Positions 1,626 to 44,902 of a stretch of DNA of 63,787 nt are shown piece by piece (position 1 is the stretch's first letter; each line of letters begins with the position of its first letter). The translations under genes and the position numbers were made by a program. Source of the stretch: Phoronis australis (Eukaryota; Animalia; Phoronida); NCBI GenBank assembly GCA_002633005.1, contig NMRA01001033.1, positions 2,938 through 66,724 on the forward strand, read 5' to 3'. The notes under the pieces were generated by a model. It was not told the DNA's origin, made no database searches, and saw only the letters and a list, made by a program, of their open reading frames with translations.

Positions 1626-2737
1626 ATTTCACAGAAGACAAAATATCATAACGGAATGTTCGATTAATATCGCTGTTCGCAATGGCCGAGAATCCTGCCA
1701 ATTTCCAGTTCCAACCCCCGTACATTACAATTTGCCGTTTTATTGTAGCAATAATTTCTAAAATTATGAGAAAAAACGGAATTTCGGTTGCAAAACGTGT
1801 TTCATTTTGAAACATACCCCGTTGTAGAGCTCAATTGAACTCGTTATAAACCCGACGTCCATCACAAAAAACAACTCTTGATTTTGTCTGTTTTAATTGA
1901 AACTAATCGAAATTTGCAGGTTTTTATAACACACTACCCTGTTTGACCACTTTATCTTTACTAGCAAAATATTGTTGAATTGGCTATCCACAGTTTGTGA
2001 CTACAGTGATACAAGTGGATTAATAAGAGAGTTGTTTAGAAAACTTCTATAGGGTCTTCTATTAGCTTAAATGATCAGAAAATTCCAAAGGTGCCCTACA
2101 TTTTGTGTGTCTTTACTATAAGTTTTCATTTATTACAAATTAAGTCGACGTTACTAGCCTACATGTATAACTCTCATTGTATCAAAATAAGTTGATTACA
2201 AGTAGTTACAATCTTTATCTGGATGAATTTTTGAAATAAGAAATAATGTCTCTAATATTAAAAAATACCTTGGATAATGCTACATGTACGTCTGTATCGT
2301 TATGCCTTTACCCTAAAGACACAGCAAGATGATGCATCTAGCCTTAAAGGAGAATGCCACCCGAATAATTAATCTTTTTTGCCGTCTTAATCGGTCTATA
2401 TCAACATTAACTCGCACACGGTCGACCTTACCTTGCCAAGATGTGTCGCTTTAACCTGTGAGGAAAGTGAAAAACGACGCTAGCGACGTCAGTGCTTCAT
2501 ATGCAGAGTGAATGCCGCTATGTTGCTGTGCATCGTTCCCGCTTGTCCGAACTAAGCAGCTGCGAGAAAAGCGGGTATGTCGTTTTTTTGTACTTCCTCG
2601 AGAGTCCAAAATGCTTAGGAAATGTACGATGTAAACAGCAAATATGAGGCCGTGAAACATCTTTGTGTCTGTGGCGTGCAGTCGTCGCGGGGCAGTTCCT
2701 GACGAATGCCGGCTTCAGTTCCCTTACAAAAATGAAC

Positions 2738-3080
2738 ATAAGTTTTCATCGAAAAACTTAAGTTTTTGGTCTGAAAAACTTAAGTTTTCATTCCCGAAAA
2801 CTTAAGTTTTTGGCGAAAACTTAAGTATTTTCGAACAAGTTTTTTGGAACGAACTTAAGTTTAGTTTTCTGAAAACTTAAGTTTTAAAAACTTAACTTTG
2901 TTCCAAAAAACTTGTTCCAAATTACTTACGTTTTTGGAAAACTTAAGTTTTGGAACAAGTTTTTAGTAACAAACATAAGTCATCAAAACTAAGTTTTTGA
3001 AAACTAAGTTTTCCGAACATATTAAGTTTTCAAGGAACTAACTTTTGAAAACTGAAGTTTTCTAAACGAAATAAGTTTCA
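2738..3080. repeat. Array of palindromic AAAACTTAAGTTTT motifs (left subterminal region)
   Basis: Many perfect and degenerate copies separated by short variable linkers. Confidence 0.9.
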
Positions 3081-9119: not shown

Positions 9120-9334
9120 TGAACTGACTAGGTTAAACGTTCGTCGTTTTATGGTATTTGTATCTCTATAAATGTTAAGGAAACATTCGGGCAACATTTT
9201 TTTGAGATGATGGATTTTGCATGAGCAAACAATAATTTTTGTTGGAAAATAATGGGAAAAATTTCGAACCAAAAATTAAATATCTCACAATATTCAAATT
9301 TTAAAAACTTGAAAACGTAAATTTTCATCACATA

Positions 9335-9720
9335 GAAACCTTAAAGTTTTAAGAAAATTCAAGTTTTCCACAAATGAAAAAATCCAGTTTTCTGAAAAAC
9401 TTAAGAAGTCAGGAAAACTTAAGTTTTTAAAATTACAAAAACTTAAGTTTTGTTAGTACAAAAAACTTACGTTTTCATGAAAACTTAAGTTATTACTTAA
9501 AACTTAAGTTTATTTGTGAACACTTAAGTTTTACACTTGAAAAAACTAAGGTTTTCTGAAAAACTTAAGTTTTCTGAAAAACTTAACATTGTCCTGAAAA
9601 ACTTAAGCTTTTGGCGAAAAACTTAAGTTTTAAACCTTCAGTTTCTTTTAAAAAGTTAAGTTTTTCCTCTAAAACTAAAGTTTTTTCGCCAAAAACTTAA
9701 GTTTTCAGCGAACAACTTAA
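9335..9720. repeat. Array of palindromic AAAACTTAAGTTTT motifs (right subterminal region)
   Basis: Same motif and spacing style as 2738-3080. Confidence 0.9.
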
Positions 9721-11789
9721 GGGCCTGATCGGGGTCCGAGCCACTGGCCAGGCTAACAAGCGCTTTGTGTTTAGAACTCAAAAAATCACAAGTCTAAACA
9801 ACACAGATCTAGATTCTCCTGTCTGTATCTCACAGAAAATACTTCGAAATTATCTCCGAACAGACCCCAAACTCCTGTTACGGACCTTATTGGCCTCTGC
9901 ACCGTACAAGCCCTCAAACCTAAAAACCAAAGGTCACGTGAAAACAAACATGATAGAATTTCATTTCAAGTGTAATAAATTTCCGGGGGACAAATAGTAA
10001 ACAAATAGTCTAATGGATATTTACGTACCCTTTGCCATGGCATTGGGCTTGGATTGTAATCTCACTAACCCATATCGAGTTAAAAATTCAGCATTCATTG
10101 ATGTACATGTAACTGTTACTGATCAACCTGTTTGAAATCATTCCAAACAATAATACGGCTTTGATGTACGAAAAGATCTCGAGTGCTACGTCAAGTATCG
10201 TAACACGCATCACAACAAAGATTAACCCGACTGGCGACTGTCGCGAAGTCGACATCGGCGAGTATCTCAGTTAACAGGCATCAGTAGAATAAACATGGAA
10301 AAATCGTTAAAATAATCACAAACCTTACCTTTGTATAAGGTCGTGCTTACTTTCTCTCATAGAAGCACCCTTTTCACGCAATCTCAGATTCAGTTTGCAC
10401 ACCTACAAGCCATTTAACCATGTATTTAAAGGGCTCGCGAAATCGAGGCTGTTTATCTATCACCACTAGTACACGCGCGCCCTCTAGTTAATGTAAATTT
10501 TCCGAGTAGCCCCATTGATACAAATTAGGTTGTTTTTGGGTGGCATGCTCCTTTAAAGTCTTACGGCAACAGAAGGCGTGCATTGTGAACTTTTACAGGC
10601 TTTTTAACCGTACGATATTTGACTTAAAATTTGAGCTGAAATACAATTTCAAACGTAATAGAAACATTCCCATTTGTGTTCCACTACTGAGGTGTCTTCA
10701 CTGTTTTCGGAAAAACGGTTAAGACAGGATTTTTTAAATTAAGATGGTCACAAATTCCTCAAAAATGATTATGCAGTATGCCAATTGAACATACTTAGTT
10801 GTATTTTGAAAATTAATGACCTCAAGCGCTTAGAATAGGAATATTAGACATTAATTTTTAGATTGTATCTTTACCGTTATTGGGTACTTTATGTGAAAAT
10901 GGCCGAAGTTCTATAGCAAGTACACACACCGGAACAAACGAATTCAAGCAACTCTCCTCCATGCGCGGCGCAACCTCAGCTGCCGCCATATCTTACTTGA
11001 CATTTCATGTCTGGAGATACTTATGTGATGAACTAACTGATATGTTTTCTTCTGTTTGCATAAGGTACCTGGCTGCCATTTATAAGATAAGATAAGAGGT
11101 TCAAACTGCAGCTACCATTATCATTTTTAATGCCTTTTTCTTATAAATTGAATTGCCGCACGTCATTGACCTTTGAATCTAAGTTCTCGCTTCTTTCTTG
11201 GAATAAATGCTGTCCTAAATTATCTCAGGTTGGTTTCATCTACAGTTGCCTATAATTTATGGTTTCATCAAATACCTAGTGTATCGTGAATTCAATTAAA
11301 ATAACACAATAATATAGTTTTCTACAATTTATGGTTTCATCAAATACCCACTGTATCGTGATATCAATTTCAAAAGCGCAATGCTACAATTTCTTCCGCT
11401 TTCATACAAAACAAATACTTTTTGAGACGTCCGATGAGAGCTGAGAAGCAGCCAGTAACCTTGTATGCATAGAACATGACTGCAAAACTGGTTAGCTGCG
11501 TTGAATATTAGATTGAGAATGAGCGACTTTCCAGAGGCACAGGTCGCAGGCGCAGAACACGGAATATATCCCGCTAATTAAAACTTATTTGCCCTTATAA
11601 CAGGGAAAACATTGGCAGACACCACAAGTAAACGTCTCGAATGTTCCACAACGTGTTGTAAAATATGAGAAAACAATACGCAATTTTCTGATGGTCTTTC
11701 AGTTCAAGTCTGGGATACATTAAATAATTTCATCCAACGTCAGATTGGTAACACTGAGAGGGTTTCTCTACAGTCGATATGTACGTACC

Positions 11790-19400: not shown

Positions 19401-19706
19401 ATAGTATGTAACCACTTGCTGTATTGCAAGTTATACCGAGGTATATTAGCAGAGTTGGCAGACCTGGGTGTATTAATTATAGTCGCCTTCAGGAACTTTT
19501 CGTTTTTCTGTAGCTTTATATAAGGATTGTTGGAGCAAAATTTGTCAGAACGTTTCAATTGTTCAGTAGCAACAGAAAGGTGGAAAATATTAACCTGGGC
19601 AAATTTACAGCCAAACTCACTCTGGTGAATGGTGACAAACTCAAAATGTTCTTCACAGCCTTAAAACCGTAGTTGGATATTGCTTCACATGGCTCAGTGA
19701 CATTTG

Positions 19707-20012
19707 TATCGTCACTGTAGACAGGCTCAATATACGATGTAGCTATACTAAACTGACTATCGTCACTGTAGACAGGCTCAATATACGATGTAGCTATACT
19801 AAACTGACTATCGTCACTGTAGACAGACTCAATATACGATTTAGCTATACTAAACTGACTATCGTCACTGTAGACAGGCTCAATATACGATGTAGCTATA
19901 CTAAACTGACTATCGTTACTGTAGACAGACTCAATATACGATGTAGCTATACTAAACTGACTATCGTCACTGTAGACAGGCTCAATATACGATATAGCTA
20001 TACTAAACTGAC
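19707..20012. repeat. Minisatellite, 6 x 51 bp
   Basis: Unit TATCGTCACTGTAGACAGGCTCAATATACGATGTAGCTATACTAAACTGAC, head-to-tail with few substitutions. Confidence 0.97.
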
Positions 20013-21260
20013 TTACTAGACCAAGGGGGCAGTGTGATGGCTGATAAAATATTTTTAATTAATAAGATACTCAGTGATAAGGGTTCAAAACTGAAAATCA
20101 CTCCATTTCAGAGGAAACAAGAAAAAGGTAATAAATAGCCAGTTTGAGAATACATGAGGAGAGCTATTAGGCATATCAAGGACAATTAATCACTTGTGTA
20201 TACACTTCAATTTCCTTGAACAATACTGGCTCAGTAAATCAATTGTGGACAGTTGCATGTTTTAAGCAAACTTCAGAGGCCCTATTGTAAATGACTGATA
20301 CCATACTTATGGTTTTCCAACAAATGACAAGACCTATCCAGTATAATATTACAACTCTGTCAATTTATTTTTATCAGCATATTAGAATGTACATTCGGCT
20401 CATAAGAGTGACTACACCTCGATCTTGATGGCCATGTTAGTTTTCAACCAGGATAACTTTGGTCAGGGCCAGTGACAACATCACTATCAAATACGTCCAA
20501 GTCTGTTTCCAGGGTAATCAAGCAAGAGATAGAAATTGAAGAAAAAATGACCCACCTTGTGCTTCAGGTGTTAAATAATATTAATGTCTTAGTTTACGGT
20601 TTTTAAACTATCCAGATATAAAGAACAACAAGGGACCAGTGTGGATTGGTTGAAAACACGAGTAAGTGAAACATCATGTTCAATACTTGTCCCAAACAAT
20701 TGAATCGATGACTGACGAAATAATCTAATGAATTTACAAATAAAACTGACACCACTAAATGTTTTCACCATAATTAAACCAGTAGTCTCACCACTCATTG
20801 TTATCTTTGAATTCTTCTTGGGAAACAAAAAATCCAATGAAATAGACTATGTAGTGTTACTATGCCTGACCAGCTGACAGCTCAACAACAACTGAATAAT
20901 GTTTTTGCAGCCTGTAAAAGTGTTCACTTCTTAATGAAGTTATGTAACTTTCACTGGAGTACTTGTACCCTTTGGGCAGATAATTCTTGCCAGATGACTA
21001 TGAAGACTTTTTACAATAAGATTCCACAAAGCTAAATGTAACATGTATGTTTGGAACAAGTGTAAGGTTACGATCAGCCAACGCAGGGGAGGCTGCATGA
21101 AGCAGTTTATCAGTATAAGCCTCGCTTTGGATTTCCTCTTAATATTCATGGAGTGATATTAAGAAAGGTCTATTAAACGTAGAACGAGTGATCGCAGATA
21201 CGATAACACTGAATGTGAAGAAAGCCCACTGAACGCTTCAGCCACAAAACTGCTCAGCAC

Positions 21261-28891: not shown

Positions 28892-29988
28892 GCATTTAAC
28901 AAGGTAAATTTAATTTATCGTAATCTATTTTACACGGGGTACACAACGAGCTATGTTGCAATGTAAAACAAGAGGAGGATTGCAAGTAATGTCATTTATT
29001 ATGACGTAAATAGATAAAACTAAATAAGACTCTGCAAGATGGGCATGGACAAAACGCCATAATGGCACCACGGGAATGCTGACATCGCCCATCCGAGAAA
29101 GCTGAAACCGGGCAATAACAAGGGTAGACTATGATAAAATATAGGTATAAATAACGGTATAATTGAAAACTAGAACACAACAGTCTAGAATATAAAAAAC
29201 TAGAATATAACAAACCGCGAAGCAAAATGCAACAATCAATTGAAGTAAAGGTAACTAGAACTAATGAATAGAAATTGAAGCCTGCAACTGCAGACCTTTG
29301 GCCGCAGGCTGCAAAGACAGACCTGCGAACGGGAGGAGGTCGGCTGCAACAATAAACCTGACCTGGGGGGGACTGAAACCGCAGACCCAGAGTAGTGAGA
29401 AGGCCGGGCTGAAAAGCAAAGTGAGAGAAATGGGGAACTGCAACAACAGGCTCACCAGGAGTTCAGGAAGCATGGGTAAGAGGAAAAAGCAGACTTGCGA
29501 ATGTAGTTTTTTAGTGCGTCGGATTTCCAGCGCCCCATGCGCTGAATCACCGGTTCAGGGACGCCACGGCTGGCCGCTGAGGTGGCAAAAGCTATGTGAC
29601 TTACACAGTATAAGACTTGGTTTCGAGTCCTGCAAAGGAGACCACTTTAGTTAAAGGCGAAGGCAACCTTTTTCCATGTCATTTTGAGCTAAAATAAGGT
29701 TGGTTGGTTATCCTAGACATATTTTTCACTTAATTACAGCTTTTCGTAATTTTATTAATTACTCGTCCGCTTTTCCGGAAGTGACGTTTTAGGAGGCAAG
29801 CGCTTCCCGCCACTTGGTTTTGCGTTGAGCTTACTGTGCGAATCTGTTCTATTCTACTTTTGTTTTGTGCTATTTTTCACCAATTGTCGCCACCACTTTC
29901 CGTCGGCGAGTATTCTGTGGCAAGATAGGTTAGTAGAGAACTCAACTGCGTTGGATTTAGGGATTGTTTAGTGTGTTGTAAGCTGAAA

Positions 29989-30262
29989 ATGGCTGGAGTC
30001 GGTGACCCGTATCACAGTGACAGTAGTGTGAGTGACGGAGACCTTGTTCACAGCAGTGGTGACGAGGAATTTTTTCACGGACATTCAGTGGGTGGGTACA
30101 TGTTTGAGCCCGAGTACAACGAGGCAGAGTACACACAGGCACAGGCAGCTGTTGAGAGAAACGAGGCGGCTACTGAAGACAGACGTGGTGACACATCTTG
30201 GTGCAAATGCACTGTGTGCGTTGTTATGCCTACCTCAATTGAATGCTTGTGCTGTTCCGAGT
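29989..30262 (+). pseudogene. Kolobok accessory protein KolX (P2X7 cytoplasmic ballast-like Cys-rich domain), 3'-truncated
   Basis: MAGV...YMFEPEY...RRGDTSWCKCTVCVVMPTSIECLCCSE. The ORF then runs into antisense transposase sequence at the deletion junction. Confidence 0.8.
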
Positions 30263-31330
30263 TCCACATCAATTATCTTTTTGGTCTCTTCCTCCATTAG
30301 AGTGTATGTGGTATACTTGGCGGACCGCCCTGGTGAGTCAGACAAGTTCTCCTTCTCCATGAATTCCGCCACCAACTCGAGATGTTGTGACATGTATGCG
30401 TCATTGACAACTGGTATTAAATAGGAATTCTGAATGTTGTTGAATGTTGTTTTCGAAAAAAAACTTGACTTTTCCAAAGTCCATCATTGTCTTCACCGAC
30501 TGAAACGTGTTTCCAGTGAAGAGCACACCACTGGACATGGTTAAGTGGACCTCCGGCATACCACGGACAGAGGAACAACTGTCCCACTTGCCAGAGTGTC
30601 CCGTGACACACTCCCACTGGATGGTGACCTGAGCACCCAAACTGCTTACATTGTGTCGTGTGACTCCCTCGCCACACACCTGGCACCTTCTAAATAGCTC
30701 CAACACTTTAGACAAGTCCACAATAAACTTATCAAAGTTTGGCTCACCGATCTGTTCACTGGACGACGAACTGTCCTCTTCACTGGGTGTCGAACTGGGC
30801 CTGTAATCACTCCCACTACTCAATATCGCTGCAGGGCTGCTTAGAGGCTCTGGGCTGGAGAAAACAGCACAGGGCGAATCACTACTGGTTCCAGGAATTG
30901 CACGCTCTGGGGTACGTTCGGAGGCACGGGTGACAGTAGATGAAGTGCCTCCACTGGCTCCAGTCACTGTACTGGCCACAGCTCGCGAGGCTTCTCGCTT
31001 CAAAAACGCACTTCTCGGGGGTGGCGACGGGGCACTGCCGGGAATCAACACAGACGGAATGGCATCCTTCTTCAAGCGTTGTTTCGCGGGGACCTTCATC
31101 AGTTCAGCGTACAAATCCCTTTCGTAATCGGACGGCAGAAAGTGCTTGCCACACACACGGTAATTCTCCACTGCTTTGTACGTTGCGTGGACGGGTAACG
31201 CTGCGTTCTTCACACGAACGAGCCAAGTACGGCGAAGTGTGTCATCCATCGGAAAGCGATGCAAAGGCACTCCCAAAGCGCGCGTGAGCCGATAATTACT
31301 ACATCCCGGTACGCAGCAACAGTGTGGCAT
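30262..31330 (-). pseudogene. Kolobok THAP-domain transposase, N-terminal half (309-aa ORF, then frameshift and deletion)
   Basis: THAP MPHCCCVPGC...LHRFP...W...VCGKHF...AIPS, a Zn motif CQVC...CVTGH, and after the frameshift DSPGRSAKYTTYTLM...KIID. Confidence 0.9.
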
Positions 31331-32290
31331 GTTGACTGACTAGTAAATGAAAGCGAACGACGACGGAACTTAACACAACCGAGGTAGAACAATGACTGAC
31401 TCGGCAGCTCTCACAGTCAGACTATGTGAAAAGAAATTGGCGGGAAGCGCTTGCCTCCTAAAACGTCACTTCCGGAAAAGCGGACGAATAATTAATAAAA
31501 TTACGAAAAGCTGTAATTAAGTGAAAAATATGTCTAGGATAACCAACCAACCTTATTTTAGCTCAAAATGACATGGAAAAAGGTTGCCTTCGCCTTTAAC
31601 ATGGAGTTGAAGCAGGAACATGTAACCGGTGATCCACTGAGGTGTTGGAACAGGTGGCCTGAAGAGGGCTAAAAGTAGAAAAGTACAAGGTTAGGGCAGC
31701 TACCGGACAATGGGAAGATCGACTGGATGGAATCGTAAGTGAGACTGGTCCCGAGCTGTGCTTGAAAGTACACATAATGATGACCACAGAATCGCTAGAA
31801 GGTGGGAAGACGACGTCGCTGACCTGTCTGACGTGAGAGGAGAGCGAGGAGGTGACTGTGAATTCACCGACTCTGAGGAAGGCATGAAAGGCTAGAAGGA
31901 ACATGGCACGTGCGAGAACCGAGTTGGCAAAAGAGCCGAGTGCAGAAGGGCAGGCGTCAAACAAGCGGTGAAGCAAAGCTGAAGTAATGGGCATGAGGAG
32001 CGCAGATTGGAAGCACCTTTGAGGAGTTTTTTGATGACAAAGGAGGAAGTGGGGTCAGGGAGGTTGTCGAGCTTATGGACAAAACTAATGGCAGGGACAT
32101 AGGACTGGACAGACGAGCTACTAAGGCCAGATTCGAAAAGATGGGAGGTGTAGTGGGCTAGGAAAAAAGGTACTAATGGGCAAGGTGAGAGGAGAGTTGT
32201 TAGAAGAGAGGTGAAACTGTGCAAGGTTATGCAGGATGCAGGTGTAGTACTGAATAGTGGAGGGGGCCAGGGAAGCCCGGAGCAGTTTGG

Positions 32291-33435
32291 TCACGCTGCC
32301 TGGAGGTGTGGCGGGATCAGTGTCGGATGACTGCTGAGCCAAGAAGCCTTGGAAAAGACGACCTGAAAGTTGAAACGAGAAAGTGCATCAGCGACGATGT
32401 TAGTGTAGCCAGGGATATGTTTTGCCCGAAAATGAACGTTAAAGGTAAGAGCGGAGATGACCAGACGACGGACAAGGGACATAATTGGGGGGTGGGGTGG
32501 CGGGAGGAGGTCTCGCTGATAATGTCAACGACGGCACGGTTGTCGCACGAGAAAAGAATCTTGTGGTTGGCGAGCTTCGATCCCCACAGCTCTAGCGCTA
32601 TGACAATAGGAAGGAGTTCCTTGAAGGTGATGTGATGGTGCTCGGGTCACGGGCAGGCAGACCAGGAAGCCCCCATTCTCGCAGCAAAACCCCCATTGGA
32701 GCCTGCAGCATCGGCGTACAGTTTGATGGTGTTTGAAGATGTCCACTTGTCGAATAGGAACAGTGTTTTCCCATTGAAGCCTCGGAGAAAGATAGACCAA
32801 GCCCTAAGGTCCGCTCTAGCTTCTTTATTGAGATTGATGAAGTGGTCTGGTCTCGAAATACCAATGGTGAGGTTGATGACGGATCAGGCGAATTTTAGTA
32901 GATCAATAAAGGATTGAAGATCGCGAAGAGTAACCTTCCGGCGCTTCTGGAAGTAGAGGAGGATGTTGGAAGCTTTTTCCACCTTGTCCTGTGGCGAGAA
33001 GCAGTCTTGGTCGTAGAGTCGAGATGGATGCCATGAATGGTGATGGAGGTGGTCGGCTGAATGGTCTTGTCGTGGTTGATAGGAATGCCTAGGAAGTCGC
33101 AGAGCGATATGAATGCGGCGAGGTCCCGGGAGCATGTCGGCGAGGATGAGGGGCCCACCACAAAGAAGTCATCGAGGTAGTGAGAAACGCCGGCGATCTT
33201 CAACTTGGTTTCCAGGATCCAGCTGGAGGCACAGCCAAATGGCAGGCACCTGTCGTATGAGAAGTTGTTGGCCCAGGACAGACCTAAGAGGCGGTAGTCG
33301 TAAGGGTGCGAAAAGCGTCCTTGATGTCAGTCTTAGACATGAGGGAGTGGCGTCCAAACCGTTGAACCAGGCGAATAGCGTCCGTGATGGATTGGTACTG
33401 GACTTGTGAGAAATGAGGGGTATGCGGGAGTTAAC
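32291..33435 (-). pseudogene. Ngaro/DIRS RT-RNase H fragment (copy B)
   Basis: HYLDDFF motif and RNase H end FRAKHIPGYTNIVADALSR. Same truncation point as copy A. Confidence 0.9.
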
Positions 33436-35751
33436 TGAGTTAGAGTAACAAAATGGATATGACAAGTTATGAATGAGACGAAAACTGTTAGGGTGAGATT
33501 TAGATTTAATCCCACGCGTTCAATATTTTAAAGAAATGTCATTGTTTATCCCTTATCGAAGTGCGATAACAACTGACAAACTCAGTTTGGGGTGGGGTCG
33601 GTCAAACGATTCGCATCCTGTAAAAACTGACAACATTCAGATTGAAATGACTTTACACGTTGTAATATATACGTGTGTAATGGTTATCAGATTATAAAGT
33701 GAACGGTCCAGTACACAGCATCAGTTAGTAGTTGGCGGTGGCGGCACAGGTTAGACATATGAACTGTTTCCAAAATGCTATAACTGGCACTGGTAAGGTA
33801 GTTCAGGTCAAAATCATTTGAAAACATGCCTGGCCAGCTTAGAAACAAAAAAGGGAAAAAAGACGCTAGACTGCAGCAAGTAAACGACGTTTCAATAGTT
33901 ATGGAAAGTAATCCTCAGGTATATCATTTGACAGAAGACAAAATATCATAACGGAATGTTCGATTAATAGCGCTGTTCTCAATGGCCGAGACTCCTGCCA
34001 ATTTCCAGGACCAACACCGGTACATTACAATTTGCCGTTTTATTTTAGCAATAATTTCCGAAATTATGAGAAAAAACAAAAATTTCGGTTATAAAACGTG
34101 TTTCCTTTTGAAACATACCCCGTTGTAGAGCTCAGTTGAACTCGTTATAAACCCGACGTCCATCACAAAAAACAACTCTTGATTTTGATCGTTTCAATTG
34201 AAATTGATAACGCGCTACCCTGTTTGACCACATTATCTTTAATAGCAAAATATTATTGAATTGGCTATCAACAGTTGGTGACTGCAGTGTTATACATGTA
34301 TAACTCTCATGGTATCAAAATAAGTTGATTACAAATAGTTACAATCTTTATCTGGCTGAATTTTTGAAATAAGAAATAATGTCTAACTTCAATACTAAAA
34401 AATACCTTGGATATTGCTACGTCTGTACCATTATGTCTTTACCGTAAAGACACAGCAAGATAAAGACACAGCAAGATGATGCCACTAGCCTTAGAGTCTT
34501 ACCGCAACAGAAGGCGTGTATTGGGAACTTTTATAGGCTTTTTAACCGTACGATATCTGACTTAAAATTTGAGCTGAAATACAATTTTAAACGTAATAGA
34601 AACATTCCCATGTGTGTACAACTACTGAGGTGTCTTCACTGTTTTCGGAAAAACGGTTAGGACAGGATATTTAAAATTAAGATGGTCACAAATTCCTCAA
34701 AAATGATTGTGCAGTATGCCAATTGAACATACATTGTTGTATTTTGAAAATTAATGACCTCAAACGCTTAGTTCATGGAATATTAGACATTAATTTTTAG
34801 ATTGTATCTTTACCGTTATTGGGTACTTTATGTGAAAATGGCCGAAATTTTATAGCAAGTACACACACCGGAACAAACGAATTCAAGCAACTCTCCTCCA
34901 TGCGCGGCGCAACCTCAGCTGCCGCCATATTTTACTTGACATTTCGTGTCTAGAGATACTAAAGTGATAAATTAACTGATATTTGTTCTTCTGTTTGCAT
35001 AAGGTACCTGGCTGCCATTTATCAGATGTGGGGGCTCAAACTGCAGGTACCGTGAACATTTTTAATGTCATTTGTCTTATAAATTGAATTGCCGCACGTC
35101 ATTGACCTTTGAATCTAAATTCTCGCTTCTTTCTTGCAATAAATGCTGTCCTAAATTATTTCAGGTTGGTTTCATCATAGACTATAGTTGTCTATAATTT
35201 ATGGTTTCATCAAATACCCACTGTATCGTGATTTCAATTTAAAAAAACGCAATGCTACAATTTCTTCCGCTTTCATACAAAACATATACTTTTTAGACAT
35301 CCGATGAGAGCTGAGAAGCAGCCTGTAACCTTTAGACCTTGTATGCATAGAACATTACTGCAGAACTGGTTACCTGAGTTTGAATATTTGATTGAGAATG
35401 AGCGACTTTCCAGAGGCACATGTCGCTGGCGCAAAACACTGAATATATCCCGCTAATTAAAACTTATTTGCCCTTATAACAGGGAAATATTGGCAGACAC
35501 CACGAGTAAACGTCTGGAATGTTCCACAACAATGTGTTGTAAAATGTGAAAAAACAATACGCAATTTTCTGATGGTCTTTTAGTTCAAGTCTGGGATACA
35601 CTAAATAATTTCATCCGACTTCAGATTGGTAACACTGAGAGGGTTTCTCTACAGTCGATATGTACGTACCTTGCTAGTTAAGGTTTTCGACCGTTGGGCA
35701 CTATGTCTTTCTCAAACTGAACGGAAATAGTGTGTGAATAACGTCACGAGG

Positions 35752-37913: not shown

Positions 37914-39438
37914 GATAGATAACATACTTTAATTACACTTTATCAAAAGACATCTTTAGTAACAAGTCGAAATTAGATATAGGGTGAGTAGTTTATGTCT
38001 TGTACCAACAGAGAAGGAGTGCCAAATCGTTTCAAGTGGTGTCACTTATTTTTGCTTAGAAAACCCTTCGGCGGAACTGTGCAGTTTTTAAATTAAATGA
38101 AGTATGATAACCGTATTGGTGTAGACGAAAAATCTCGTTGTCACTATGAAAAATGGTGGCAACCACGTGAAAGCCGCCATTACAATATTGCATAGTTAAC
38201 AAAGACATTACATATACTTCCTCCGGCAGGGAAGTAGGCTGCACGAGCAGGGAAAAATACATCATTCCTTGTGACACTTGCAGAAATAGTGCATATGTAC
38301 ACTTATACTTGATGTATAGGGCTGTCTGACCTTGACCTCGTTCCCAATCTAAGATGGCTTCCACATGAATAGCCTTTGTCTGAGCTTACAATCTATAGTT
38401 TAAGTATGATACGTGCCTTATAACTCTTCGTGCAATCACTTCTACAGTAGGCCTGTAAAAGATCTCAAAGCAATGCATCGACATTTTGTTGTAGTTTTTC
38501 ACAAAATTCAAACATGTCATTTGTACGGCTCTATCCATTAGTAACCATCCTGAGCCGACTGAAAAACGTGGTTTAGATGAATCAAATTTCTTGCTTCGAT
38601 TTTTTCTTGTTTTCAGTCACAGCATCAAAAGTTTGTTGTCGCCAGTCACCGAAAACATCCGTATGCATTGGTTTGCGTTAAAACCAACATAATCACACTT
38701 TGTTCGAGTCTTTTTTGTGAAAAATTGATGAGCATTTTCAACATGACGAGATAACCAACTTCCGTTTTCATCGCTTAAGCTAGAGTTTGCCTTTACAGTA
38801 AATTAACTAAAAAGCGTGACAGACCGTCCAGTCTACTTTCAGTTAACAACGATGTGATCATTGACACATTTTTATTAGATGTTCATTTTTCTATTTTAGC
38901 TTGAAGTAGGTATTCGCTTTCTAAATGGACTCTGCGTTCAGCACATCGCATAAGACAAACTTACATGTACATGTTGTCGGTCGAGTTGTATCCCATGATT
39001 CGTGAAAACATGTCGTGCTGAGACAACCATGTATAACCATAGATTATAGACAACAGATTCGCAACTCCGGCATATTCTTACGAGCTGAGTTGACCTCTAA
39101 TGACCTATCTGCTGCAGTTTCCGGTCAGTTTTAATTTGACGAGAAATACCTGCATCTACTTTACTGTCCAAAACAGCGAAAAAACATTAATTTATATTAA
39201 TTTCGGTATTGAAACGCTCTTCAAAATCTTTCAATAGTAGAAGTGTTGGTATTGTGAGTACTTTTGGCAATGCTACTGGTAATTAATTTCAAAATTCAAA
39301 CTTCGGTTCCGACCCTTTATGTCGTCTGCTTGCCCAATAGCAGCATAGTTATCGGACAGTTTTTGATTTACGGTTCACATAGGCCTACTGAGAAAACTAC
39401 GAAAGCGTGTTTATAAATCAACATTCTCAAGTGAGCAG

Positions 39439-39446
39439 TTCTTCTG
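39439..39446 (-). promoter_or_regulatory. Candidate histone downstream element (HDE)-like purine-rich motif
   Basis: CAGAAGAA begins 13 nt after the distal stem-loop on the minus strand. Confidence 0.35.
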
Positions 39447-39459
39447 GGCAGTGTTGAGT

Positions 39460-39475
39460 GGCCCTTAAAAGGGCC
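39460..39475 (-). terminator. Histone-type 3' stem-loop (distal)
   Basis: CCAAC-GGCCCT-TTTA-AGGGCC-ACTCA: perfect 6-bp stem, 4-nt loop, canonical flanks. Confidence 0.85.
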
Positions 39476-39500
39476 GTTGGTTGTAGGTATAGCGTGAAAT

Positions 39501-39516
39501 GGTTCTTAAAAGAACC
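39501..39516 (-). terminator. Histone-type 3' stem-loop (proximal)
   Basis: TCAAC-GGTTCT-TTTA-AGAACC-ATTTC, 10 nt after the stop codon. Confidence 0.8.
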
Positions 39517-39526
39517 GTTGAATAAT

Positions 39527-39844
39527 TCAACATAAATCACACAGTATGCCATGCTCACTCAAGTACTGAAGGTCCTCTTCATTAAAGTTTTCATCTGGAA
39601 AGGTTGGATGAAAACAGAGGAGATGACAATATCGATGACAGTTGTAACACCTTAGATAGATATCACCGTTCACCAACGTTGTCACGAACCCTGCATCGTT
39701 CAGTTCTTGTTCCTGTATCCACAAATAATCCTGAACTGTAGGAAAAAAATGACAAACAACACAACGAATCAAATTTCGAAAATCATCGCCTTCGTACGAT
39801 TCCGTGTTGCTGTCACCAGACTGATGTTCTTCTCCAACGTCCAT
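39527..39844 (-). CDS. Small acidic intronless C4HC3 (PHD-like) zinc-finger protein, 105 aa
   Basis: ATG at 39844 to TGA at 39527, uninterrupted. C-x2-C-x34-C-x2-C-x4-H-x2-C-x24-C-x2-C-stop. Confidence 0.7.
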   Translation of the reverse strand: MDVGEEHQSGDSNTESYEGDDFRNLIRCVVCHFFPTVQDYLWIQEQELNDAGFVTTLVNGDIYLRCYNCHRYCHLLCFHPTFPDENFNEEDLQYLSEHGILCDLC

Positions 39845-40110
39845 CGTAAAAAATCGACGTTGCAAGTGATGGAAACTTGTCTACGCTCTCGTCCTTTGTT
39901 TCTAACCTTTAACCCATTTTTAATAAAGGGGTGTACTGTTTTTGGCTCATGTTGATAGTGCATAATCTATGATTTTACAATGTATTAATAGTGTTAAATG
40001 CATATATATGAACTGGTCTCATTGAGGTGCACAGCAAATAAATTAACTATAACAAATTAAAGTTTTGAAAATATAAAGAGCAGTAACAGACTCCCTAAAA
40101 ATTAGGCTTG

Positions 40111-40170
40111 TTTTCGAAAGGTTTGCGCCATTGGTGATCCGATTGGTTCAATCGCTTGCGGCGGGAAAAT
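40111..40170 (-). promoter_or_regulatory. Candidate cell-cycle-type promoter motifs upstream of the zinc-finger ORF
   Basis: Minus strand carries TTTCCCGC (E2F consensus, 40161-40168), CCAAT at 40142-40146 and 40130-40134, and an adjacent TGGCGCAAA. Confidence 0.4.
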
Positions 40171-40340
40171 TGATAGACCCAGTTATTGTGCGCGTGTACA
40201 CTGTATCAATGCTTTGTATCTTATTCTTATTTGTCTAATCTGTTGATACAGTAAATTTCCTTATTTATGCCCATCCTGATTTAACCCCGACTTGAGCTCC
40301 TTGGGTTTTACCATATTGGGGCTGTCCAGGGACTCACGTG

Positions 40341-40484
40341 CATGCGCGCACCCAGTCTTCAAAATGGGGGGCTCGAATTCCTGACGTTATGGAACTGTTG
40401 TTAACAAGAGAGCGGGCAGACCTTTTTGCCCACTTCGCCAAATGGGGGGGGCTCGAACCCCCCCCCCTCTGAGTGGCGCACATG
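40341..40484. mobile_element. CATGCGCGCACCC-family MITE, 5-bp TSD ACGTG
   Basis: CATG...CATG ends. ACGTG at 40336-40340 and 40485-40489. Confidence 0.8.
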
Positions 40485-40763
40485 ACGTGGTGCTTACTCG
40501 AATGAGTTTCATTTTAGCGGCTATTTCCAATTGTGTAGGTGAAGTAAATTAACAAAGTGGATGATTATCATCACCGGTATTTCATCATTAGTATTTTTGT
40601 CGGCCTCTCAAGTTTTCCGTGGCTAGGGATTGTCACATCTGTAAGGTAGACGTGTTTCAGTGAACCTCCATGTTTGTGGCGTTATTTATACCTGACCAAA
40701 CTTTGAAAAAGAAGCCCGCGTTTAAACCAGGAGCTGCATTGGGTGCAATTTGTGTAGACGTTT

Positions 40764-40920
40764 CATGCGCGCACCCAGCCTCTAATACGGGGGCTCGAAT
40801 CTCTGGCAAAGTGGACCTTTTGCTAACAAAAAGCGTGAGAACTAAAATAAAAAACGGGGTGCTGCCGTATTGTGGACTTTCGTCTCTTTCTCTTGGACTT
40901 TTCCCCTGGGTGCGCGCATG
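40764..40920. mobile_element. CATGCGCGCACCCAG-family MITE, 5-bp TSD CGTTT (fragments also near 7908, 43138, 51010)
   Basis: Perfect 15-bp TIR. CGTTT at 40759-40763 and 40921-40925. Confidence 0.88.
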
Positions 40921-41218
40921 CGTTTGTCTACGTTGCTAGTTTTTATAAAGGTGGGCCTGTCTGTAGCCAACTACGGTAAATTCATAAAAGGTCACGTGCA
41001 GTGCAACTCAAGTTCATTACAAATTAAAAATCCGAACTTTCAAACCGTTTGATCTGAGTTGACATCTCAAATCAAAATTATGAAAATGCCACATAAAAGT
41101 ATGAAATTGAAAATTAGCACACGTCAGCTTCACGTCCCTACCACCCCCTTTATCTTGCTTGCTACCTCTTAGGGTTCATTTCCCTTGCTTCCGAGGTTTT
41201 TCGTTATTCTGGTATTTT

Positions 41219-42041
41219 CATAGACTGCAGCGTACTTGGCTAAGATGGTTCAAGTTTTGTGCGGCATACAGTCGACATAAATAATTGAGTATGTAACCTG
41301 CTGTTGAATTGCGGGATAGATTTTGACAGGTCCAGGTATTTATTTCTGAAGTATTAATGTAATCTTTATTTATGTTAAAGGTTTTACTAGCGTCCTATTT
41401 ATTTGTACACGAATGTGAATTTGTTGAAATCGCTGATCCAAATCCTGGCCAAATCTGCGCATTATGCTGAGACCAACCGTCTGATCAGGGCCACCTAAGA
41501 GTAATTTGGTTAATTCGCTCACTAGACTATGGCTGAAGGTCCTCGTAAGGACAAGAGTTCACCAGTCACTACCATTGGAAGAAATTTAGCGGACATTTTT
41601 CGTCAAAAAGTTTACCAGATAGTTTTCATCAAAACGGAGAAAAGAAAAATGGATTTGTGAAGACAGGATTAAGTAGTAGGCCTACCAGAGCCTCTTAAAA
41701 AACACCCATCTTCGAAGTGTCGTGAACAAATGTATGAGTTTTTTTTTGGAAGAAAAACTTCCATTCACGTCGACGCAAGAACATAACTTTTTCTCCCAAA
41801 GCGGATTTTGTGGTCTTCGTACACTATGGAAGCTAACGCCTCTGCATTTCGCCTGCGTAGCCGAACAACCGGCCACACAGCAACCGACCATGATTAGCAG
41901 ACGACGTACTTGCCGGAAATTACACCAGATAATTGAGCCAGGTGTCGCCAGTGAATAATGACGTAAAGGCTTGTGCGTAAGACCACAGATTTCGTCCATT
42001 GAAAGTAAACGGAGTTGGCGGTCCATGTACTATAGTCTATG
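41219..42041 (-). mobile_element. Decayed P-element-like element with THAP exon relic (41891-~41686)
   Basis: CATAGACT at both ends in inverted orientation. MVGCCVAGCS...GVSFH...W..., then a frameshift and YICSRHFEDGCF. TSD only partly matching. Confidence 0.6.
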
Positions 42042-44902
42042 GTATAACCCAACAACCCAAATATCCAGCGCAGACTGGAACGGAATTTAAAAATAAAACG
42101 GCCAGCCAGAGCGTGTAAACCATAGATATCACATAGACCGTGCGCGCGCCACTCAGATACATGCTGCTCACGTTGTCAATATGACGCGATATTGGAGAGT
42201 GTTACGCAGGACAAAAATTGCGGAAAACACTGGGAGCCCTACGGCATTAGTCAGAAAATCGGCGGGCTCGCAGTGTTATGCTTGCAGCCAAAGAATTAAA
42301 TTTTTTGGTTCAGCCTTTGAGTCACGGGTTTTTTGGTTCGTCCATGGACTTTTGAGGTGCTGCCCCTAGGTTTTTATGTTCTGCCACCATAGTTTAAGCA
42401 GAGCGATTAAGCGTTGTTTCCACATCAGTCTTGGGGATTGAGGCGATATAAGATCAATTAAAAGACAATTGCTGACCAGCATATGCTGTTATCCAATGAT
42501 GATGCTGTTTGTTAATTGTACTTAAGTAAATATTTGGTATCAATGACAATCATATGTATTTTTACTTGTTCTGAAAAATAACATCCCCAAACCTACTCGC
42601 TAGCCAATCAGTACATCAAAGTGAATAATGTATTTTGTGTTGAAATATATACTGTTTTAAAAACTCATTTCTTAAACAGTATTCCAAAATCAGATTTCTT
42701 CTGTTGTATTAACACAAACACATCCCTGCAAAATCTGTACTTATGTTAAAGTTGATATTGGAAATTTTGTGGATTTGTAATGCTTGCTTACGAGCTCTTT
42801 GTTTTGTGTCTCAAAACTTGCGCAAACAAGTAAAAAGCATACTAACCAAAATGTCAAACCTGTGCGACTGAATTGCGTATCCTACCTATATTCAAAATAC
42901 AGAATTTCTCACTCGAAACCGAGTGGAAATATAACCAACTGAGCCGGTATAGCATTAAATAATGACTAAGTGAAAATGACCCCGGCTAGTTTTTCACAGG
43001 GTCTAAATTTAATGTGAAGAATTTTTAGCCCATGAAACAATGACCTCATGTCCGTGAAAACCCGTCCCGTCTTTATTCAACGGTTTCAGGGGCGGATACA
43101 GAATTTTGATTTAGGGGGTCGGCAAACAAGAGGATCACATGCGCGCACCCAACCTAAAATATAGAGGGGGGAATTTTGCGGTCATGTGGACCTTTCATTG
43201 GAACATTGAGACGAATACTAAAAAAACGGGTAATAGGTTCAACCCCGTGCATTGCACCGACGAATTCTTTGAACTTTTGTCGCGTTTCCTCGGACTTTTT
43301 GTTTCTCTAAGAAGGACCTTTTTGCCCACTTCGACAAATGGGGGCTCATTCGAGCCTCCCGAGCCCCCCTTCATGGACTGGGCCCCTAAATATGAAAAGA
43401 TTTATAATTTTACAGGAAATGCACAGCTTTTGATGTTATCTGTTTTTCTCAAAAATAGAGCAACAGTTGTCTCCGTTATCCCTTGCCGGAGAGGAATCTC
43501 TGGAAAATATAGTTTTGCATTATTGCTTTTAAAAAACGGAGACCTTAACAACAATGTCCTGGCCAGATCCCTCAAAGGGTAAACCTTGCACTGATACTGA
43601 GTTGTCAAATGTTCTCTTGAATATTGTCACCTATCCATATTCGCGGTCTTTCTTTTCTCGACTGTCGCGGCACCACGCCTATGTCGGTTGGCAAGGTTTA
43701 GCTCTGACGCTTGCAATTTTGGGGGGAGGCACGTGCCCTCCCCCGGCCCCCGCTTCCTGCGGCCCTGTACTAACAGTATATAGGCCTACGTAATATCGGA
43801 CTTGTATCACTCGTGAAAACAGTCAAAGTTATTAACACTAATCGTTGGCTTTCGCCTTACATCATATTTTAATATATCAATTAAAATTGATATATAAAAA
43901 CAGCACTGCGAAAGCTTTGTCAAGCATCATTCCTGGTGCACTCGTAAAGGTATGTCAGAGATTAATTGAGCTTCTGACCGCAATTGGTGAATTTGTGGGC
44001 GATGCAATTCTATCATTTCCAGCCAGTAAACCTTTCTGATACCGCATTGGCTGACAAAGACTTAGTGTACATATTTGTTGCAGATGATTTTTTACGGAAA
44101 ATGGTAGAATAACAAAACATCTGGTTAAATGGGGCCTCAGAATTACCAGGAAGAGGGTCGGGTAGAAAGGGTTATTGAGCTCGCTGAAACTTTGAGATCC
44201 TAAGGCAGCTGCAAACGTATGCTGCAGTAACAGATACAATCTTTTGTTTTACTTGTGTAACTTAGGTCCTGTGTTGCTCCAGCAGCTGTAGAATTTTAAT
44301 CCCCAAAGCACCACCCATCCTTGTGTGAAAAGATATTTCTTAACAAGGGCGTTTACGCTTTCAAAACAACACTAGTGTTTTTTATCCTTGTTAATAATTG
44401 TTGCTTGACATTGTGTCAGCAGGAATATTTCCCAGACAGCCATTCATCGTTTCAGAAGATGAAACCGGTGACCAGAGAAAGCCAACGAGTGTGGTCTTAA
44501 GCGATAAAAGTGGGTGCGCTCAAAGACGCTACGGTCTCTGGTGCGCTCGAGTGTAAGTATTGAGAAAAGTGAAAATAAAGCATTGCATAGGACATAAAAG
44601 GATCTGAGCTATATCATCTGTTAAAAACCTAGTTAGAACTTACTATGCTAAGGACATTGACTGGTCAGTACAATCCTCGAAGTACCGATTTTACCTAACG
44701 CCAAGTCTACCCTGTTTACAACAAAATGTCGTTAAAGACTGGAAATTTTCCCTTTGCGTCTTTGTGGTGTAGTCTCGATGGTGTCAACACGCAGTTAGAC
44801 ATGGTTAAGACTGTCGAAAGTGTTAAGTTGTTTTTATCTTACGTATCCTTTTCCGGAATTTTGAGTGTGCGACATTGCCCTCCAACATCCACTATAGTAA
44901 GA

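Follow-up and report, generated by a model that had tools for sequence, protein, structure and literature searches.

A PHD-like zinc-finger gene with tandem histone-type stem-loops inside a non-autonomous DNA transposon of Phoronis australis: a candidate client of the histone mRNA pathway

Histone mRNAs are the only mRNAs of metazoans without a poly(A) tail, and SLBP binds nothing else, according to the accessible parts of PMC4604434 and PMC10388802. A stretch of Phoronis australis DNA (assembly GCA_002633005.1, contig NMRA01001033.1, positions 2,938 to 66,724), 63,787 nt in length and referred to here as the window, contains a short zinc-finger gene that is followed by two histone-type stem-loops. 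The question raised by this locus is whether a gene that does not encode a histone could be served by the SLBP/U7 pathway, and how it came by such an end. The feature is real and borne by a transposon, and its role in the histone pathway is that of a candidate.

Table 1. Features of the transposon-borne locus, in window coordinates
Feature	Position	Strand	Basis or remark
Non-autonomous TIR DNA transposon, P/Galileo-like, 3,004 bp	39038..42041		Ends agree 11/12; exact 7-bp direct flanks
Left target-site duplication GTATAAC	39031..39037	+	Exact 7-bp direct repeat
Right target-site duplication GTATAAC	42042..42048	+	Exact 7-bp direct repeat
Left terminal inverted repeat	39038..39075	+	Inverted-end comparison
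Right terminal inverted repeat, imperfect	42004..42041	-	Inverted-end comparison
Candidate distal poly(A) signal, ATTAAA	39130..39135	-	Sequence; RNA reads extend to 39094
Candidate histone downstream element, CAGAAGAA	39439..39446	-	From sequence
Histone-type stem-loop 2	39460..39475	-	RF00032, 34.8 bits (cut-off 34)
Histone-type stem-loop 1	39501..39516	-	RF00032, 22.8 bits; purine-rich element absent 3'
105-aa acidic C4HC3 PHD-like finger ORF	39527..39844	-	ATG-to-stop open frame; no intron seen
Exact internal repeat of the initial 10 bases of the left end	39962..39971	-	127 nt 5' of the ATG
Two CCAAT boxes, possible promoter	40130..40146	-	286-302 nt 5' of the ATG; role inferred
Frameshifted THAP-domain remnant	41672..41891	-	Frame shift at or near a nine-T run, 41739-41747

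The intact ORF with C4HC3 spacing that a sequence-only reading of this DNA had described was found to be uninterrupted from start to stop (Table 1), and the zinc ligands of its 105-aa product are C28 C31, C66 C69, H74 C77 and C102 C105. It had also been called intronless, and this agrees with the RNA reads, which list no splice joint across 39097-40040, and with the continuity of the frame. The protein is strongly acidic (20 D+E and 4 K+R; pI 4.25) and gave no histone match in Pfam; unlike replication-dependent histone genes, this gene does not encode a histone. A decayed histone gene nearby had been named as an alternative source of the hairpins. We found none, since 0 of 110 reading-frame segments of at least 28 aa between 38000 and 43000 matched a histone in Pfam. 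The pair of CCAAT boxes 5' of the ORF could represent a promoter, albeit one of a kind that is not specific to histone genes.

Both stem-loops lie on the sense strand, close behind the stop codon, and begin 10 and 51 nt past it, with CAGAAGAA located 13 nt past the stem of the second, exactly as the sequence-only reading had placed them. For comparison, the median distance from stop to stem-loop in metazoans is 30 nt (bioRxiv 10.64898/2026.10.14.759114, accessible text). Stem-loop 2 is the sole match at gathering level to any Rfam model across the 63,787 bases. Covariance scoring, which had been proposed as a check, thus gave a divided answer: stem-loop 2 cleared the cut-off, but stem-loop 1 stayed below it (E 0.0029 in a search of 2.5 kb). 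When a 20-letter histone stem-loop pattern was run against the window, it matched at two sites, and no match was obtained in any of 100 shuffles, which excluded chance as the origin of both hairpins. On folding a 67-nt stretch, each hairpin formed a 6-bp stem, and on folding 101 nt, hairpin 1 was absorbed into a longer helix. In both, the second pair of the stem is G-C, the third base of the loop is U, the 5' flank has A at -3 and -2 and C at -1, and an A stands 3' of the stem. These bases agree with the SLBP determinants given in the accessible portions of PMC10388802 and bioRxiv 10.64898/2026.10.14.759114.

The two stems had further been read as selected for structure, on the grounds that they differ by compensatory pairs. 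The stems do differ at two pairs, in either arm, but a set of two paralogous hairpins is too small to demonstrate covariation. Beyond the stems, the two units are not recent duplicates of each other. A purine-rich stretch is present 3' of stem-loop 2, and none is found behind stem-loop 1; the former includes CAGAAGAA, which satisfies the AAGA rule of thumb for a candidate histone downstream element. Taking known histone mRNA ends as a guide, the predicted cut would fall at about 39455, after stem-loop 2. The statement that neither AATAAA nor ATTAAA occurs within about 200 nt also held, as the first ATTAAA sits 392 nt past the stop codon and AATAAA is absent from the 526 nt that follow it. Taken together, these results supported the identity, location and strand of the histone-type hairpins behind the PHD-like ORF, and their base composition at the critical positions makes it likely that this 3' end would bind SLBP.

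What kind of protein precedes these signals? Sequence searches yielded two close relatives (P0002 and P0003, the latter at 68%), eight among 50% representatives and 31 by profile; one of the eight, P0009 (958 aa), was rejected as a repeat-driven chance match. Named members of the family are DPMN_041554 and DPMN_056048 of Dreissena polymorpha. All 27 proteins that were aligned share the eight C4HC3 ligands and, near the N terminus, an ES motif without exception, in an alignment from which damaged or truncated relatives were omitted, among them P0002 and P0003, the closest relatives, which look damaged. The window protein itself reached an E of 0.88 against Pfam PHD, recognition in an Atlas search stayed below threshold, and a weak sequence match was obtained to the Slx1 RING-type finger (E 0.015). 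Its relative P0004 clears the PHD_NSD cut-off (27.7 versus 23.9). With a structure model of the window protein (pLDDT 79), the top Foldseek match was MLL3 PHD6 at a weak E of 0.1, and the top VIA match was MLL1 PHD3 (Z 4.5; rmsd 2.6; 59 aligned). The earlier description as PHD-like is thus likely to be right, given the invariant ligands, the score of P0004 and a model that ranks PHD fingers first, if weakly; by extension, the finger may bind histone tails.

In a tree of 31 rows, P0001 and P0003 form a separate long branch of 1.87 changes per column with a support of 100/100. Viral relatives were limited to a single weak locus found with P0002 (L001, 21 residues), none being found with the family alignment, and no viral structure in BFVD matched in Foldseek at E<=0.001. 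A prokaryote genome collection contained no relative, and no longer or fused form of the protein was present among 7,986 scored candidates, a result that counts as weak evidence.

The surroundings of this family were examined in five metagenome loci (L002-L006) from two samples, each of which encodes a PHD-like relative that shares about 40% identity with the window protein; P0002, P0003, P0007 and P0040 lie outside this set of loci. The likeness among L003-L005 is 84-87%, and that of L002 and L006 to these three is 66-70%, so that the five represent about three lineages. Directly after the PHD stop codon, all five carry sequence homologous to one long transposase-like frame. The second half of this frame matches DUF7869 at E 2.4e-6, above the cut-off, and its Atlas neighbours are DUF7869 clusters, one of them with 11% DDE_Tnp_ISAZ013. 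Its motifs would fit a Sola-type DDE transposase. Element ends were not recognized in the five contigs, which are partial. In L003 and L004, the ATG of the transposase-like frame lies 2 nt past the PHD stop, a tight two-ORF layout for an animal transposon. In addition, the tail spliced onto the Dreissena gene model P0034 shares 54% identity with the transposase-like frame (E 2e-13), which indicated that the linkage of PHD and transposase exists in a named genome as well. No description of Sola-like transposases preceded by a PHD ORF that stands alone was found in the literature searched, a search whose scope lay outside Repbase and the Sola-defining paper.

Whether homologs keep the stem-loop had been posed as a test of the sequence-only reading, and here the outcome was negative: none of the five loci, all of them distant (about 40% identical), retains it. 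No Histone3 match at E<=1 was obtained in L002-L006, nor was a relaxed hairpin detected within 600 nt past the stop. Since the transposase frame is present in all five and the hairpin in none, the PHD-like ORF is likely to open a transposase element as its small first gene, and the family as a whole does not share the hairpins. Moreover, the position after the stop codon is where the transposase-like frame starts in all five relatives; the hairpins of the window therefore stand in the place of the missing gene.

The window gene lies in a different element. New in this work is the placement of the PHD-like gene and its hairpins inside a non-autonomous transposon of 3,004 bp that is flanked by a target-site duplication and contains a THAP remnant (Table 1). 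There are 103,991 position pairs with 7-bp direct flanks in the window, and two of them reach an end match of 11/12; the other one falls within a palindromic satellite. The first approximately 40 bp of the left terminus are common to an abundant repeat whose members diverge thereafter, with RNA depth and loose ends at 39079. As for the THAP remnant, its second half matches Pfam THAP at E 0.0076, below the cut-off, and its first half aligns weakly (E 0.009) to an intact THAP protein encoded elsewhere in the window. The PHD-like ORF is intact, and the THAP gene of the same element copy is broken. No Pfam match to a P-type DDE transposase core was found within the element, as expected for a non-autonomous copy. 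We assign the element as P-like from its ends and its THAP remnant, the two features on which the assignment rests; THAP domains occur also outside the P superfamily. The terminal 10-mer was found at two sites in the window, the left end and the inner copy upstream of the ATG, and the interval 39038-39971 may possibly be an older inner unit of 934 bp, which lacks a target duplication.

A nested Sola-like element around the PHD-like ORF was sought and rejected, as no duplication of at least 4 bp was found among the 25 best inverted pairs listed. Likewise, a DUF7869-type transposase remnant was not recovered from the window, where the best tblastn match had an E of 0.38. The proposal that the gene is derived from a virus or a transposon thus stood in its second part, by virtue of the TIR/TSD element and the transposase-linked relatives, and gained no support in its first, no link to viruses or Polintons being found.

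The remainder of the window also appears to be repeat-rich. Termini of the CATAGA type occur at 42121, 35176 and 59485, with no matching duplication within 15 kb, suggesting further members of the P-like terminal family. An abundant dispersed repeat that is inserted in the element, under very deep RNA reads, was seen at 40335-40465, 40764-40829, 43138-43360 and other positions. At 29650-31600, inverted repeats of 192 nt (93%) enclose a 309-aa THAP ORF on the minus strand and a P2RX7_C-like ORF on the plus strand, an arrangement reminiscent of Kolobok-type elements. Fragments of reverse transcriptase (RVT_1, E 0.027) are contained in a near-identical pair of duplicate stretches (1-1900 and 32315-34200), and a frame next to them (31596-31994) resembles, by eye, a piece of a tyrosine recombinase; these are likely the remains of a DIRS-type retroelement. 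Further repeats, at 19656-20063, 2735-3003 and 9310-9726, comprise a 51-bp tandem array and a pair of palindromic satellite blocks rich in AT.

We then turned to same-species RNA reads from three raw runs (X8, X9 and X10; 18-19% of each read) and one contig set (X5), for which the library selection is given as 'unspecified'. Across 39100-39880, X8 and X9 reached depths of about 30-70 and X10 reached 6-20, and in the flank at 38600-39025 the depth stayed below 1.5 for X8 and X9 and was at most 5 for X10. Coverage takes in the ORF and the two hairpins and extends for about 400 nt more, continuing to 39094. An RNA end about 5 nt past a stem-loop had been predicted, and it was not observed: in all three runs, with selection unspecified and copies mixed, neither a drop in depth nor a pile of ends was present near 39455. 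Depths summed over both directions in the bins 39452-39522 and then 39381-39451 were 41.5 and 55.5 in X8, 44.5 and 50.9 in X9, and 6.1 and 6.5 in X10. The single begin/end site listed is 39486, which is neither 39455 nor 39496. How much weight this result has depends on the library. If it was poly(A) selected, cut RNAs would be hidden and the read-through would be neutral; if it was ribo-depleted, the read-through counts against cutting.

Reads were found on both strands, and variant shares ranged from 6/30 to 51/53 in X8, which suggests several copies or pooled animals. With both strands covered and many variants present, other copies may contribute much of the signal by read-through. Among 40 of the 303 variant rows, none fell inside a stem-loop and two fell in the flanks. 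Record 3 of X5, assembled in another study, spans both hairpins and differs in three letters, none in a stem-loop. For the ORF, five of the eight substitutions listed change a residue and three are silent, none affects a zinc ligand, and a frameshifting deletion is present in 8 of 50 X8 reads; these variants gave no clear sign of selection on the protein.

How might such a gene have arisen? The reading that we favour, in which our belief and our doubt are about equal, is that a former accessory gene of a transposon, left without the transposase gene next to it, acquired a histone-type 3' end that uses SLBP and is cut after hairpin 2. We favour it because two distinct, near-canonical hairpins in sense orientation, with no remnant of a histone gene, are hard to obtain by a single passive capture. 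The bases that match SLBP determinants, the intact ORF beside a broken THAP gene, the transcription of 39100-39880 above its flank and the hairpins unchanged in the X5 record also speak for it. Against it stand the hairpin-less homologs, the lack of a fall in depth, the reads on both strands, ORF variants that give no clear sign of selection, the damaged P0002 and P0003, and a first stem-loop that is below the Rfam cut-off and has no downstream element. The report that HeLa SLBP bound to no non-histone RNA (accessible text of PMC4604434) also weighs against it.

According to this favoured reading, the history that needs the fewest assumptions, a PHD accessory ORF would have lost the transposase that stood downstream, acquired histone 3' signals where the transposase frame had been, and come to rest inside the P-like non-autonomous element, which a P-type transposase would mobilize in trans. 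SLBP would be bound at both hairpins and the message cut after stem-loop 2, whose combination with the purine-rich element would produce a short non-polyadenylated mRNA; stem-loop 1 would serve as an additional SLBP site, and a longer read-through form would coexist. An end of this type could tie expression to dividing cells or to the germ line and early embryo, and the acidic finger might attach to histone tails and assist the element in resisting silencing or choosing targets. The fuller proposition, that a transposon lineage has rewired a histone-tail-reading accessory gene to SLBP/U7 and thereby makes a non-polyadenylated mRNA that is timed to replication or stored in oocytes, is put forward tentatively, as one that may well prove wrong.

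In the main rival history, a Pack-TIR element would have taken up histone 3' DNA, through gap filling or through template switching, with unselected hairpins and with RNA that is mere read-through of repeats. The element that holds the gene is indeed non-autonomous and its THAP gene is dead, animal TIR elements are known to capture host DNA (PMC8277862, in its accessible part), and damaged copies exist; such a history also accommodates the absence of hairpins from all five homologous loci and of an RNA end at the predicted cut, with both strands covered. It would, however, require the capture of two different hairpins or a donor histone gene that already had two, since the two units are not recent copies of each other outside the stems, together with the trimming of all coding sequence and a landing in sense no more than 10 nt behind the stop. 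No remnant of a histone gene was present among the 110 segments searched, and we regard this history as unlikely.

The coverage of about 400 nt beyond the hairpins, toward the ATTAAA at 39135 and the end of the element, could alternatively mean that SLBP is bound without any cutting, the hairpins lying in a longer, probably polyadenylated 3' UTR and acting in storage, export or translation or in soaking up SLBP. Two sites fit binding better than cutting, and stem-loop 1 has the SLBP determinants and no downstream element. Yet the purine-rich element behind stem-loop 2 has the correct spacing, cut RNAs would be concealed if poly(A) selection was applied, and there are known histone mRNAs that occur with either type of end (PMC5100578 and PMC7807067, accessible parts), all of which makes this option quite improbable. 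The least credible alternative is a host-domesticated PHD gene with histone-like regulation at a fixed locus of the lineage, of which the element carries a copy: the long branch of P0001 and P0003 apart from the transposase-linked relatives, the upstream CCAAT boxes and the lack of a visible intron would suit it, but the X8 variant shares suggest several copies or pooled individuals, the nearest relatives are damaged and the present copy is flanked by a target duplication.

If the reading of a rewired transposon gene with an SLBP-dependent end is true, the SLBP/U7 pathway has a non-histone client, used by a mobile element, and mobile DNA would have a way of coupling its expression to replication or to development at an early stage. 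The hairpin-less relatives provide a natural before/after comparison, and the locus is short, with a precisely predicted cut.

No non-histone or transposon gene with a histone stem-loop end was found in the literature searched by title and abstract, in which few subscription papers were in scope. The tandem-hairpin pattern gave no match in genome_contigs and none in viral_contigs, two collections with little animal DNA. Hairpins of this kind were encountered in two other sequences. L008 (IMGVR_UViG_2716885016_000001), a 16-kb sequence with one long frame that resembles an RNA-virus polyprotein, has stem-loops on the coding strand at 1504-1519 and 2480-2495, about 1 kb apart; the first was selected by the pattern, and the second, which lies outside it, scores 30.3 bits on RF00032. 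These are possibly SLBP sites in viral RNA. In L007, a histone-like hairpin (1504-1519; 23.1 bits) is antisense in a phage-like coding region and, given the size of the collection, is likely due to chance.

Like the replication-dependent histone genes of metazoans, the PHD-like gene has no visible intron, CCAAT boxes upstream, a diagnostic 16-nt stem-loop soon after the stop codon and a purine-rich element 13 nt past its second stem; unlike them, it is non-histone, has tandem hairpins, lies inside a transposon and shows no RNA end at the hairpin. Galileo, of the P superfamily, has 7-bp duplications with the consensus GTANTAC and a THAP domain (PMC4168063, accessible text). The element described here resembles it in its TIRs, its 7-bp duplication (6/7 to GTANTAC) and a THAP remnant near one end, and differs in that its TIRs are short and imperfect rather than long and foldback, in the lack of a transposase core and in carrying a cargo gene. 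With animal Pack-TIRs, as the available text of PMC8277862 presents them, it shares a TIR structure that bears foreign sequence under RNA reads, but the ORF that it carries derives from another transposon family and has a host RNA-processing signal attached. The same ORF is homologous (about 40%) to the small upstream ORF of DUF7869 transposase elements, and in the window it has two hairpins instead of a transposase. Chromatin-type domains on DNA transposons have precedents in VANC of Vandal, SET of HarbingerS and the PHD finger of Rehavkus, for which the accessible parts of PMC12730594 and PMC6446971 do not mention a histone-type 3' end. The Phoronis protein differs from these proteins, as described there, in being a stand-alone acidic PHD-like finger and a candidate histone reader.
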